From positions 10,927 to 74,926 of the IMG/VR virus record IMGVR_UViG_3300046660_000510: a DNA stretch of 64,000 nt; one strand, 5' to 3'. A program made the position numbers and the translations under genes. The notes beneath the pieces were generated by a model that had not been told where the DNA came from, ran no database searches, and saw only the letters and a list, made by a program, of their open reading frames with translations. This DNA is from a virus. Every line of letters starts with the position of its first letter. The stretch's first letter is position 1. Shown here piece after piece: positions 3,235 to 7,504 of this stretch.

Positions 3235-4059
3235 GTGGGAGCAGCACTGCACCTTGCGCACGTGCACCAGCCGAGCCCGCCGAAGCGCCGGCCCAAGCGG
3301 AAGGGAGGCGGCGACGGAGGGAAGTTCTCCGAGTACGCGCAACGCATCTACCAGGACGACCGGGCGACCAGTGAGACCCGCAGCCTCCTTCTGGCCATCG
3401 CCTACGTCATCACGATGCAGCGCACCGACGACCCGAAGGAGCAGTGGCGCAACCTCCGCAAGGCGCTGGGCCGCAGCGAGAAGCACCGGTACACGGACTT
3501 CCTGCGCGATCTGGTCGAGCACGACCGGCCCCGCTACATACCGCCGGAGGATCGGCCCGGCGGCTACGACCCGTCCAAGCGGCTCTGTGTCGGCCCGCGT
3601 CTCCGCCCGTTCAAGGAGCGCCCCTACAAGGCGGAGCAGATGTCCCTGCCCGCCCGCGTCGAGCAGACCAAGCGGGACGCTGAGGACTTCCGCAACACCG
3701 ACAACGTGTGCGGCGCCCCCGGCAAGGACCGCGTCCTCGAGAAGCTGCCCGCCACCGGATGGTACCGGTGGCACTGGTTCTGCCAACGGCACCGCGACCA
3801 CGCCCAGCGGGTGAAGGAGCAGGTGAAGGCACAGAACGCGGCCGCGCCCGACCCCATTCCGAACGCGGGCGGGCTGATGCCTTGCTACTTCGAAGCGGAC
3901 TGGGTGCGCCTGTACCGGCACTACACGTGGGACACCTGGGAGCCGCCCGTGTACGGCGTCCGCGCCGACGACTGGCCCATCCCCGGCAAGCAGCCCGTTC
4001 CGCAGCGCGCCCGGCTCAGCCTGGTCATTGGCGGAGGGCTGGAGGATCCGGATGAGTGA
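3235..4059 (+). CDS. hypothetical phage protein
   Basis: RBS GGAGG, coupled to upstream gene. Confidence 0.75.
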   Translation: MGAALHLAHVHQPSPPKRRPKRKGGGDGGKFSEYAQRIYQDDRATSETRSLLLAIAYVITMQRTDDPKEQWRNLRKALGRSEKHRYTDFLRDLVEHDRPRYIPPEDRPGGYDPSKRLCVGPRLRPFKERPYKAEQMSLPARVEQTKRDAEDFRNTDNVCGAPGKDRVLEKLPATGWYRWHWFCQRHRDHAQRVKEQVKAQNAAAPDPIPNAGGLMPCYFEADWVRLYRHYTWDTWEPPVYGVRADDWPIPGKQPVPQRARLSLVIGGGLEDPDE

Positions 4060-4540
4060 CGAGGAGCGCCTGGCCAGACTGACGGAAGAGCTCTGCCACG
4101 CCTACCACTACGGCGTCGGCCTGGACGAACTCGACGAGGAAGACCCCGACCAGGCCCGCGCACACCGGCGGGCCGCACGGCGCTTCCTCCGCTGGCTCGA
4201 GAACGCTCCCGAGGAGGAGTTGAGCCAGGAGAGGCGGGCAGCCTTCCGGCGGGGCTACGACCGCGGCGCCGAGAACGCGAAGAAGTCGGCCGCCGAACAG
4301 ATCCAGCACCTCGAGGCGGAAGTCGCCGAGCTCCGCCAGGACCGGGACCCGGACGGGCTGCGGGCCCGTATCGCCGACCTGCAGTACGTGAACCGCGGGT
4401 ACTCCCGCATCGTCATGGGCGGTTCGGACCTGCGTGCGGACCTGGTGGACTCCCTGCGTCGGCTCGAGGCCGTGCAGCGGGAGCTGGCCGTGCTGAAGGG
4501 CGTGCAGCCGTCCAACGCCACCGGTGAGCGGCCGTCCTGA
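4052..4540 (+). CDS. hypothetical coiled-coil protein
   Basis: GGAGG RBS, overlap with upstream stop. Confidence 0.7.
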   Translation: MSDEERLARLTEELCHAYHYGVGLDELDEEDPDQARAHRRAARRFLRWLENAPEEELSQERRAAFRRGYDRGAENAKKSAAEQIQHLEAEVAELRQDRDPDGLRARIADLQYVNRGYSRIVMGGSDLRADLVDSLRRLEAVQRELAVLKGVQPSNATGERPS

Positions 4541-4544
4541 CCGT

Positions 4545-5681
4545 TCAGACCGCCGTGTCCGCGGCAGGCGCGCTGTCGTTGACGAGATGGTCCGGCGACA
4601 GGGCCCACTGATAGATCAGCTCGTTCAGCGTCGACACCCCCCACAATCCCTTCAGCGCGGCGATCCGCTCCTCCAGCTTCCGCTTCGACACCCCGATCCG
4701 GCGGGCGATCGCCGGCTGCGAAACTCCAGCCGACAGGTAGCGGAGGATTTCCCGGTCCCGTTTCGACGTGCGTACCCCGGTGGCACCGGACACGGTGTCC
4801 ACGGCGGCGCTGCCACGCGCACGGAGTTCCCCGGTCCAGGGCTGCGCGTACATCCACGTGGTGTCATACAGCCTTGCGAGAATCGCTATTACGGCGCGGT
4901 CGGTGACATGCCAGGCGCCGTGCTCGGGGCCACCGGTGATGTGGTCGGATATGAAAGCCTGTTCCCGATCCACAATGATCATTCGTTCGAAGGCGCCAGG
5001 CAGCGTCCGGTACTGCGCAGTCGACACCGTCGCATGTGTCGCCATGGTCCGCGCATACTCGGCCGTCACCGGATGATCCCGCACCGTGTCCCGGTATATC
5101 GTCCGCATGCTCACACCCCGCTCCAGCGCGGAAGCGTCCCGGTCGACCGCCATCGCTAAAACCGTCTTGTCGCGGGGGCCGCCCGGCTGCGCGGCAAGGA
5201 TCTCCCGTTTCGCACCGGCAACGACGTCCTGAATGCGCGCGTTCACGGTGGCCTGATCGCCGAGGTACTCGGAGGCACGCCCGGAACGGGACGAGGTGGC
5301 CGTGTACTGGCCGGCCAGCTGGTCCACGAGGCCCGGGAGGGCGGACATGAACGCGACGCGCCGTCTGGCCTCCTCGATCTGGGAGAACAGGACGTTTTCG
5401 AGGGCTTGCCGCGGATTCCTTACTACGGGCTTGCCGGGTCGGTCCGGGTCTTCGTGGATAAGTCCGAACGCGTCGAGTTCGCCGTATGCGTCCGGGTACT
5501 CGGCGGTAATATTTTCAGCCTGCACCCAGTCCTGCCGGGCATAAGCCCCAAACAGGCGGAACGCACCCGACGACAACAAATCCCCGTCACTGCGCGCTAT
5601 ACCTGTGGTCAAAGGATGATCCCCCGTCAAACACCCTAGATCAACTGCGAGTTCCCGCACCGCGAACTCACGCACGATCAA
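4545..5681 (-). CDS. TrmB-like/LuxR C-terminal HTH transcriptional regulator (start uncertain)
   Basis: central EILAAQPGG...RGVSMRTIY...RMIIVDREQAFI domain; C-terminal SKRDREILRYLSAGVSQPAIARRIGVSKRKLEERIA HTH. Confidence 0.85.
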   Translation of the reverse strand: MIVREFAVRELAVDLGCLTGDHPLTTGIARSDGDLLSSGAFRLFGAYARQDWVQAENITAEYPDAYGELDAFGLIHEDPDRPGKPVVRNPRQALENVLFSQIEEARRRVAFMSALPGLVDQLAGQYTATSSRSGRASEYLGDQATVNARIQDVVAGAKREILAAQPGGPRDKTVLAMAVDRDASALERGVSMRTIYRDTVRDHPVTAEYARTMATHATVSTAQYRTLPGAFERMIIVDREQAFISDHITGGPEHGAWHVTDRAVIAILARLYDTTWMYAQPWTGELRARGSAAVDTVSGATGVRTSKRDREILRYLSAGVSQPAIARRIGVSKRKLEERIAALKGLWGVSTLNELIYQWALSPDHLVNDSAPAADTAV

Positions 5682-5852
5682 AACGTTGAGAACACAAACA
5701 GCCTACGGCAACGTAGTCCCGGGGCGTCCCCCGACGCTCGTACACCGCATCCTCCCCACGCACCGCACACGTCTACTGCCAGAACTTCGGTTCGGTGCCA
5801 GGGGATCGCAGCAGGAAGCGGACCACGAGAATTCGGGCCAGGGCGCCCCGTT

Positions 5853-5869
5853 ATCGTTTCCGAAACGAT
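5853..5869. promoter_or_regulatory. palindrome ATCGTTTC-C-GAAACGAT, candidate operator
   Basis: 8-bp inverted repeat just upstream of the peptide gene RBS. Confidence 0.4.
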
Positions 5870-5883
5870 CGAGGGGACCCGTC

Positions 5884-6087
5884 ATGCCAAGTAAATGGCG
5901 TCATATCGCCGCCGGCCTCACCATCGCGGCCGCAGCAGCAACGGTCGGACTGACCGCAACGGAATCCGCAGCAGCACCCCACGCCAGGACGGTTGCCGAT
6001 ACCGGCTGGGGATCCCTGCCCGTTGACCTGCCCGTCACCCCACCGGTTGACCTGCCCGTGCTCCCGCTCGACACCGCCTGGGGCTGA
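5884..6087 (+). CDS. secreted propeptide with repeated DT(G/A)WG motifs
   Basis: GAGGGG RBS; Sec-type signal (MPSKWRH + hydrophobic + AAA), DTGWG internal and DTAWG at C-terminus. Confidence 0.8.
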   Translation: MPSKWRHIAAGLTIAAAAATVGLTATESAAAPHARTVADTGWGSLPVDLPVTPPVDLPVLPLDTAWG

Positions 6088-6095
6088 CCCGGCCC

Positions 6096-6139
6096 GGCCT
6101 GGCACGGCATGCCCAAGGGGGGACACCCCGTGCCAGGCC
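6096..6139 (+). terminator. 12-bp stem-loop after peptide gene
   Basis: GGCCTGGCACGG...CCGTGCCAGGCC. Confidence 0.55.
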
Positions 6140-6188
6140 CGCACCAACCCGGGGGAACACCCGCCGCGATCCGCGGGAACGTTGACGC

Positions 6189-6443
6189 ATGGATGCCCCC
6201 GCCAAGCCCACCACTACAGCCCTGCCCGACCCGTTCATCACCACCGGTCCGGCCCTTTTCTACGTCACCACCCAGCAGGCCGATGCGACTCAGAGCGTGC
6301 AGCGCATCGACCTCGACTACACCGGTGATCCCCGCGAACGCGCCATCTGCCGCGCCTTGCTCCACCACGCCCTCGCCCTCCTGGACGCCAGCGAACCCGC
6401 ACGCCGCGCACCCAGCGGGCCTGTTGAGGGCCGGAGGATCTGA
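6189..6443 (+). CDS. hypothetical protein
   Basis: TGATG-coupled to next gene. Confidence 0.6.
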   Translation: MDAPAKPTTTALPDPFITTGPALFYVTTQQADATQSVQRIDLDYTGDPRERAICRALLHHALALLDASEPARRAPSGPVEGRRI

Positions 6444-7099: not shown

Positions 7100-7441
7100 T
7101 CATCCCTCGAGGTAGCCCAGCTCCGAGTCCGGCCGGCAATGCGAACACGCGGCAACGCCCTCCACCAGCGCCCGCAGTGCCGCATCCCGCGGTACGCCCT
7201 TCGAGCGTTTCCCCGCCATGTGGCAGCCGCCGACGTGCACGTACACGGGCGGCGTGTCCCGGCCCAGCGCCTGCTCGACAAGCCAGTCCGGGACCGGCGG
7301 TCGCGCCCGCTCCCCCTGCTGCCGCTCCTGCTCGCGGCGCAGCAGGTCCGCCTTCTTCTCCCGCACCCGGCCCAGGGCAACCACCAGATACGTCTCGATC
7401 GCCTCGAGGCGTGGCAGGTCAGGCGGCAGATCATCGTGCAT
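7100..7441 (-). CDS. DUF6233-like protein
   Basis: PPDLPRL...W....VHVGGC...AALRAL..GVAACSHCRPDSELG. Confidence 0.8.
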   Translation of the reverse strand: MHDDLPPDLPRLEAIETYLVVALGRVREKKADLLRREQERQQGERARPPVPDWLVEQALGRDTPPVYVHVGGCHMAGKRSKGVPRDAALRALVEGVAACSHCRPDSELGYLEG

Positions 7442-7449
7442 GTGTTCGA
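7434..7449 (-). promoter_or_regulatory. LexA (SOS) box overlapping start codon
   Basis: minus strand TCGAAC-ACAT-GCACGA matches actinobacterial TCGAAC-N4-GNNCGA; -10 TACACT adjacent. Confidence 0.7.
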
Positions 7450-7459
7450 GTGTAGGCAC

Positions 7460-7504
7460 AAAAAAAGAGGGCCCCCTCGCTCCGAAGAACGAGGAGGCCA
7501 TCTC
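7460..7504 (-). terminator. intrinsic terminator
   Basis: GC hairpin followed by 7 T on minus strand. Confidence 0.75.

Follow-up and report, generated by a model that had tools for sequence, protein, structure and literature searches.

A conserved divergent gene pair of Streptomyces phage-plasmids, encoding a TrmB-like regulator and a small precursor with D-x-x-W-G cores, is a candidate peptide-signalling module

We analyzed a 64,000-nucleotide stretch of viral DNA (the window), which is bases 10927-74926 of the 74.9-kb IMG/VR virus record IMGVR_UViG_3300046660_000510. Between positions 4545 and 6139 of the window, the gene for a putative transcriptional regulator is transcribed divergently from a small gene whose product has a Sec-type signal peptide and two pentapeptide cores of the form D-T-x-W-G. 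An earlier reading of this DNA from its letters (the sequence-only reading) had described this pair and suggested that it is a peptide communication system of an actinomycete phage-plasmid. Its observation is confirmed, and its interpretation is supported, by comparison rather than by proof: the module is real and conserved, and it is probably a new family of peptide-signalling systems, for which we consider it a candidate. The two genes, and the parts of the peptide gene, are:

4545-5612, minus strand: regulator, 355 amino acids from a TTG codon at 5612 (the open frame extends to 5681, or 378 amino acids)
5884-6087, plus strand: pre-pro-peptide gene, 67 amino acids, with ATG at 5884 and the stop codon at 6085-6087
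about 5884-5973, plus strand: signal peptide of the peptide gene, as judged by inspection
5998-6012, plus strand: core 1, DTGWG
6070-6084, plus strand: core 2, DTAWG, C-terminal, with the stop codon directly after it

The precursor has the layout MPSKWRHIAAGLTIAAAAATVGLTATESAAAPHARTVA-DTGWG-SLPVDLPVTPPVDLPVLPL-DTAWG. Its N-terminus is basic (K4, R6, and H7) and continues into a hydrophobic stretch, IAAGLTIAAAAATVGL, and then an Ala-rich end. The spacer between the two cores is LPVDLPVTPPVDLPVLPL, with a duplicated PVDLPV. All of the features that the sequence-only reading had listed for this 67-residue open reading frame (ORF) are present, and the only correction is that it starts at 5884 instead of 5885. 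By eye, Sec-type features (a basic N-region, a hydrophobic core of 12-20 residues, and small residues at -3/-1) are found in the window's peptide and in 32 aligned members of its family. The window contains 817 ORFs of at least 40 codons, and this is the only one that ends with D..WG. We found no family for the peptide in PHROGs, NCBIfam, or Pfam, and RefSeq annotates these peptides as hypothetical proteins.

The two genes occur together across many elements. A word search with the peptide found four close homologues, and a search for related loci with the peptide alignment in viral, genome, and metagenome collections found nothing; with its short length and its variability, the peptide is unsuited to such a search. 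The regulator has over 300 homologues, mostly from Streptomyces and often on contigs of 85-95 kb. Loci were collected via the regulator, and the strand upstream of it was then scanned for divergent ORFs that encode a signal peptide and one to four copies of D-x-x-W (followed by G, D, N, or nothing), the final copy being at the end of the protein. Of 17 Streptomyces loci from a collection of species genomes, 16 had an ORF of this kind, as did all four viral contigs and the plasmids NBC_01483, pSAM1, and MBT27 (the regulator of MBT27 is 38% identical). Among 401 Streptomyces species genomes, 38 have the regulator at E = 1e-40 or better, and 18 of 30 further loci from the 401 genomes also have the divergent ORF. 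The temperate phage Chymera has a regulator that is 30% identical (gp29) and a peptide with two copies of DPGWG (gp30), and this pair adjoins the integrase and the immunity repressor. (The host of Chymera is S. venezuelae.) The divergent arrangement seen in the window, with 271 bp between the genes, holds in more than 40 loci, and the pairing persists down to about 30% identity of the regulator. As a control, we took 428 kb of related loci, which contain 5458 ORFs with a length of 40 codons or more: D..WG is the C-terminus of 31, and all 31 lie divergently upstream of a homologue of the regulator. Conservation of the pairing across genomes, which the sequence-only reading had put forward as a check on its proposal, is strongly borne out in phages, plasmids, and prophages of Streptomyces.

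The cores are the conserved part of the precursor. We searched 1.84 billion cluster representatives with a profile of the precursor and obtained 201 matches at E ≤ 0.001, nearly all of them 60-80 amino acids long and aligned end to end. Among the best 149 of these 201 representatives, 141 have a terminal D..W(x) and 139 contain between two and four cores; some members of the family have just one. The cores within a precursor are identical in 115 of the 139 multi-core representatives, whereas 2000 shuffles averaged 19 and never exceeded 33. Across the family there are at least 17 kinds of terminal core, the commonest being DTAWG (47), DTTWG (41), and DTGWG (16); the variants in the loci are DTTWG, DTWWG, DVGWG, DIGWG, DLGWG, DSAWG, DPGWD, DSSWN, DSVW, and DTTW. 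Core types track clades on the regulator tree. This pattern, with matching cores inside a precursor and other cores in other lineages, fits a signal. In an alignment of 32 precursors (A5), the only invariant residues are D63 and W66 of the terminal core, and the spacers, which are rich in Pro, Thr, and Ala, are free in both length and sequence. In several members the first core is flush with an A-x-A type site (TAQA/DPGWG in Chymera, SVA/DTAWG in L035, and VSA/DTAWG in L018), and in the scanned loci the final core is always the end of the protein. Because the first core follows such a site and the last core is C-terminal, a released pentapeptide is indicated.

We also noted two unusual forms of the peptide gene. 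On 220-kb linear plasmids and their relatives (L040, L047, and L049), a short frame just upstream of the regulator ends with RRDSAWGC and a stop codon and lacks a signal peptide. It resembles a decayed remnant of the peptide gene, in a clade that is otherwise peptide-less and that has a gene for a helix-turn-helix (HTH) protein upstream instead. At a chromosomal locus (L069:2627-2812 and the neighboring frame), the signal peptide and the first DTGWG are in one frame and the terminal DTGWG is in another, which is either a frameshift or a sequencing error.

The regulator has a TrmB-like body. We number its residues by the 378-residue frame (4545-5681), but the TTG at 5612 is the likely start, because residues 1-33 are unstructured in the predicted structure and because gene callers begin there. 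The AlphaFold2 (AF2) model, which was built on 25 homologues and has a predicted local distance difference test (pLDDT) score of 78, contains a winged helix (residues 38-88), a 40-residue long helix that would form a coiled coil (90-130), an alpha/beta domain that resembles phospholipase D (PLD-like; 137-278), and a four-helix, LuxR-type HTH (305-366). The HxK catalytic motif is absent from the PLD-like domain. The best Foldseek matches of the model are to TrmBL2 (5bpi/5bpd; best E = 7.5e-12), with TrmB at E = 2.4e-07 (3qph) and the sugar-binding domain of TrmB at E = 1.6e-05 (2f5t); the PLD-family protein Nuc (1byr) follows TrmBL2 and TrmB 3qph in the ranking, and no tetratricopeptide repeat (TPR) protein is among the best matches. 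By sequence, the similarity is below the thresholds of Pfam: Regulator_TrmB scores 16 bits (cut-off 22.2), GerE scores 17.9 bits (cut-off 23.5), and DUF7436 is also a sub-threshold match. More broadly, matches in PHROGs, NCBIfam, and Pfam were all sub-threshold. Some homologues of the regulator do carry PF00196, and the profile of the regulator family weakly matches the HTH of FixJ, VpsT, and NarL (E = 0.006-0.06). As in the archaeal TrmB and TrmBL2, the winged helix, the long dimerising helix, and the PLD-like domain come in the same order. Unlike TrmB, the modeled regulator does not have the C-terminal, sugar-binding beta subdomain, and residues 305-366 are the HTH instead. According to the model, then, the regulator has a TrmBL2-like body, with a LuxR-type HTH in place of the sugar-binding subdomain of TrmB. 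The sequence-only reading had seen a TrmB-like sensor domain with a C-terminal LuxR HTH, outside the RRNPP/TPR class of receptors, and both the model and the Foldseek matches agree with it.

The 270 bp between the two genes are also conserved, and in an alignment of 16 pSAM1-like elements (A3) more so than either gene. The features in and around it are:

5646-5659 and 5661-5674, no strand: two tandem 14-bp palindromes, TGCG-N6-CGCA, between the divergent promoters; candidate operator of the regulator
5686-5714, plus strand: promoter-like element of the peptide transcript, with -35 TTGAGA (5686-5691), a 17-nt spacer, and -10 CAACGT (5709-5714); predicted start near 5721
5721-5850, plus strand: structured leader RNA of about 130 nt, predicted from its fold and covariation to be one long irregular hairpin
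5853-5869, no strand: palindrome ATCGTTTC-c-GAAACGAT, which extends to 15-nt arms (5846-5876), just 5' of the ribosome-binding site
5871-5877, plus strand: ribosome-binding site GAGGGGA, upstream of the peptide ORF
6096-6139, plus strand: terminator-type hairpin 3' of the peptide gene, an inverted repeat with 19-nt arms that are 84% complementary

The tandem palindromes are probably bound by the regulator itself. Their GC..GC..GC..GC columns are invariant in the 16 loci, and the tandem TGCG-N6-CGCA occurs just once in the window. The same pattern is found upstream of regulators in the peptide-less clade, and distant loci have similar sites (TGCx-N6-xGCA), so 5646-5674 is likely to be the regulator's site. 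The sequence-only reading had proposed a different operator, the palindrome at 5853-5869. That palindrome is indeed present before the peptide ORF, but it recurs only in L038, which has the closest peptide, and we rejected it as the operator of the family; the tandem site is conserved instead. As for the promoter, TTGA and CAnnnT at a fixed spacing are conserved in alignment A3, and we infer the promoter at 5686-5714 from this conservation. Sense coverage of pSAM1 (described below) starts in the matching region, and a scan with the sigma-70 consensus did not call this element. The tandem palindromes, the conserved promoter, and the leader RNA are additions to what the sequence-only reading had described.

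The leader RNA is better conserved than either flanking gene. Its hairpin is closed by GGGGCGUC/GGCGCCCC and is followed by the U-rich UUAUCGUUU; the apical loop, CUACUGCCAG (5773-5782), and an unpaired bulge, UCGCAGC (5806-5812), are invariant. All 12 of the elements that we tested have the same fold (z = -2.7 to -6.0). Both sides have changed in 17 of 43 pairs, versus 10.9 in shuffles (none of 500 shuffles reached 17), and 77% of cells are paired, versus 32-47% with slid partners. In 20 loci, a covariance model (R1) found the leader once per element; it found no copy in the distant loci. Rfam 15 had no match to 5400-6300, which includes the leader, at E up to 1. By folding energy, the antisense strand folds equally well or better, and we assigned the leader to the plus strand from the RNA reads of pSAM1 instead. 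The leader could be a stabilizer of the mRNA, an attenuator (with the U-rich tract), or an effector RNA.

The peptide gene of pSAM1 is strongly expressed. We mapped stranded raw reads that carry the host species label (two runs) to the pSAM1 copy of the module (L037), in which the minus strand encodes the peptide (3522-3749) and the plus strand encodes the regulator (4058-5125). A sharp peak of reads covers 3470-3857, with depths of 48 and 140 in the two runs, versus 1-5 in the flanks. With the strand calibrated by neighboring genes, these reads are minus-strand RNA, as expected from the orientation of the peptide gene. Read ends pile up at 3469-3515, just beyond the peptide's stop codon, and coverage drops from 82 to under 2. 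The regulator is weakly transcribed (depth of about 6), beginning near the operator. In the carrier strain, the peptide gene is a discrete, strongly expressed, and terminated unit; this is for the homologue on pSAM1 and not for the window's own element. The hairpin that the sequence-only reading had placed after the peptide ORF is also there in the window, as the inverted repeat at 6096-6139. That reading had named an unexpressed peptide gene as something that would speak against its proposal, and the homologue on pSAM1 gives a discrete, abundant, and short transcript.

We also observed that in one run, most of the pSAM1 regulator (L037:4343-5400) is covered by antisense reads that come from the convergent gene downstream, at 10-100 times the sense depth. 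These could reflect antisense control.

The setting of the module is a phage-plasmid, as the sequence-only reading had it. The window encodes phage-type proteins (a tape measure protein, tail fibres, and a neck protein) as well as ParA and DNA methyltransferases. It is related to complete, circular plasmids from Streptomyces that are 88-93 kb long, including pSAM1 of S. ambofaciens, which has a prophage-like sequence inside it that is switched on in HT medium (PMC11302927). Given the phage and ParA genes, the plasmid relatives, and the prophage-like sequence of pSAM1, this setting is sound.

According to library scans, the neighbors of the module belong to DUF4326, DUF6085, NERD, DUF6233, or DUF1643, or are without a family. 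The sequence-only reading had reported no adjacent enzyme for ribosomally synthesized and post-translationally modified peptides (RiPPs), and there is none among these families; more broadly, we found no gene for a RiPP-modifying enzyme, a protease, or a transporter adjoining the pair in the window or in the annotated relatives. The DUF6233 protein (7100-7501 on the minus strand; Pfam E = 2.9e-22; phrog_19953) is near the module here, in NBC_01483, and in pSAM1. The composition of the module is odd: the GC content at third codon positions (GC3) is 0.79 for the regulator and 0.69 for the peptide, and the intergenic region is 0.62 GC, with GC3 of 0.81-0.93 for neighboring genes. The module in the window also has a mosaic ancestry, as its regulator is nearest to L003 (71% identity), and its peptide and the palindrome by the ribosome-binding site are nearest to L038 (81% identity for the peptide and 58% for the regulator). 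This implies recombination inside the conserved intergenic region.

We are nearly certain that the pair is a functional module of a secreted peptide and a regulator. We also think that the peptide is probably an extracellular signal, and the best explanation of the whole, which we favor by somewhat better than an even chance, is that a temperate Streptomyces phage-plasmid carries these two genes as a peptide-signalling module. It is possible, at a little under even chances, that the regulator is the direct receptor of the peptide. We propose that a separate promoter drives the small gene and yields a short and abundant mRNA with a structured leader. The precursor would be exported via Sec and cut to pentapeptides of the form D-T-x-W-G (here, DTGWG and DTAWG), which would build up outside of the cells that carry the element. 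The regulator, with its TrmB/PLD-like body and LuxR-type HTH, would bind the tandem TGCG-N6-CGCA and control the promoter of the peptide, and probably its own as well. The peptide might be re-imported by the oligopeptide permease (Opp) of the host, and the regulator would be the likely intracellular sensor that binds it. In this way, the density of carriers could feed back on the element, by affecting lysis versus lysogeny, induction, or maintenance.

Several points weigh against this proposal. That the regulator binds the peptide is something we infer, and the TrmB/PLD-like fold is not among the known peptide receptors. (A dimer of the regulator, co-folded with the mature portion of the peptide precursor, scored 0.31, for a mark of 0.32, with controls not run, and weighs neither way on binding.) The regulator has no sign of receptor diversification, as dN/dS (the ratio of non-synonymous to synonymous substitution rates) is below 1 in every domain, and dS is near saturation. 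The PLD-like domain is the best conserved, with a mean pairwise identity of 60%, versus 34% for the N-terminal part. The residues that are common to the two regulators linked to DTWWG do cluster, at 66-86, but this region is the most variable and its DNA adjoins the peptide gene, and linkage would account for the clustering just as well. Similarly, the match between core types and clades fits co-inheritance, and shared descent alone may suffice to account for it. The operator is found just once per element, so it does not pick out an output gene. The peptide and the regulator have been reshuffled: as noted above, the window and L038 share 81% identity in the peptide and only 58% in the regulator. 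The regulator also occurs without the peptide in 12 chromosomal loci of Kitasatospora and in a clade of plasmids (L040, L047, L048, and L051-L054). Finally, the signal peptide was called by eye, and the peptide ORF lacks a coding bias in GC3 (0.69).

Some of these points would also fit other roles for the peptide. It might be a secreted effector whose DxxWG units hit a target outside of the cell, in the host or a competitor (for example, to block a phage receptor and cause superinfection exclusion, or to inhibit an extracellular enzyme), with a regulator that merely controls transcription. The secretion signal and the high expression in carrier cultures are what this predicts, the operator is confined to the pair's own intergenic region, the two genes recombine independently, and sensing of a peptide by a TrmB/PLD-like protein has no precedent for the fold. 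But this would not explain why one family of regulators, in phages, plasmids, and prophages and at identities as low as about 30%, stays tied to the peptide gene, or why the cores are short and repeated, with matching copies inside a precursor and other versions in other lineages, as is typical of signal types. It is also rare for conservation in an effector protein to shrink to a unit of five residues, and we consider the effector role unlikely. A protein that stays whole is less probable again. In that scenario, the N-terminal hydrophobic stretch would anchor it in the membrane, or it would associate with the wall, and the DxxWG units would dock on a surface component. Cleavage of the precursor is itself a prediction, and the Pro/Thr/Ala-rich spacers do resemble surface linkers. 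However, many members have an A-x-A type site before the first core, frequently with nothing in between, the final core is without exception the very end of the protein, spacers are free in length and sequence, and single-core precursors exist.

Repeated conserved cores with variable spacers are also what a multi-core RiPP precursor looks like, and tryptophan, which is invariant here, is commonly modified. Unlinked host enzymes might modify the Trp or Asp of the core to yield a bioactive natural product. However, no gene for a modifying enzyme, protease, or transporter is beside the pair in any context that we examined, the hosts and the elements are very diverse, and Sec signal peptides are unusual as RiPP leaders, so we give this little credence. 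We also considered that the conserved structured RNA might be the functional product and the ORF incidental. The leader covaries and is more conserved than either gene, and the ORF is without GC3 bias; but an ORF with a signal peptide and a terminal D..W core persists without the leader in Chymera, in MBT27, and in chromosomal prophages, which makes this very improbable.

Among known systems, a two-gene peptide-signalling module would be most like arbitrium (AimR-AimP-AimX) from SPbeta-like phages of Bacillus. Both are carried by temperate phages or mobile elements and have a gene for a small secreted pro-peptide beside that of a cytoplasmic DNA-binding regulator. In both, the mature peptide is presumed to be the last 5-6 residues of the precursor and differs by lineage, and the Chymera pair is in the lysogeny region. 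Unlike in arbitrium, the putative receptor is TrmB/PLD-like with a LuxR-type HTH and is not of the TPR/RRNPP type, the genes are divergent instead of co-directional, the cores are repeated 2-4 times, and the host is an actinomycete. We found no AimX-like output downstream, and this module is known from its genes and from the transcription of a homologue. Rap-Phr, PlcR-PapR, NprR-NprX, and Rgg-SHP from Firmicutes are also similar, in that a receptor adjoins a Sec-type pro-peptide whose C-terminal penta- to heptapeptide is the signal. Such RRNPP pairs are frequent on plasmids and phages, and a few Phr precursors have more than one core (for the general picture see PMC10075063). The regulator of our module is related to RRNPP receptors by neither sequence nor fold, it is from another phylum, and import by Opp is assumed here. 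The ComQXPA system of Bacillus also has a short, Trp-containing peptide signal, which is strongly polymorphic between strains, but ComX requires both an adjacent prenyltransferase (ComQ) and a membrane histidine kinase, and neither occurs here. For the conserved leader alone, a lead is RNAIII of the staphylococcal agr system, a transcript linked to quorum sensing that joins a highly structured RNA to a small ORF; there is no homology between the two.

In the literature, we did not find a description of this module, of the motif, or of a peptide system from a Streptomyces phage (subscription journals were outside the coverage). To our knowledge, peptide communication by phages has so far been described in Bacillus-type hosts and with one superfamily of receptors. 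Streptomyces are thought to signal chiefly by small lipid-like molecules such as butyrolactones. We tentatively suggest, as a possibility that we would not yet bet on, that this is the first family of gene-encoded peptide quorum sensing in Actinobacteria, spread by temperate phages, phage-plasmids, and plasmids of Streptomyces, with D-x-x-W-G pentapeptides from multi-core precursors, a receptor that is TrmB/PLD-like with a LuxR HTH and unrelated to the RRNPP type, and, in the pSAM1 clade, a leader RNA that is the effector arm for lysis versus lysogeny or for maintenance. The module is open to direct testing: pSAM1, for which DTAWG is predicted, resides in a laboratory strain, Chymera has S. 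venezuelae as its host, and the predicted peptides are simple to synthesize. If the proposal is correct, then viral cell-to-cell signalling arose more than once, the main antibiotic-producing genus would have a testable peptide signal, and the family would offer many ready-made orthogonal sets of peptide, regulator, and promoter for engineering.

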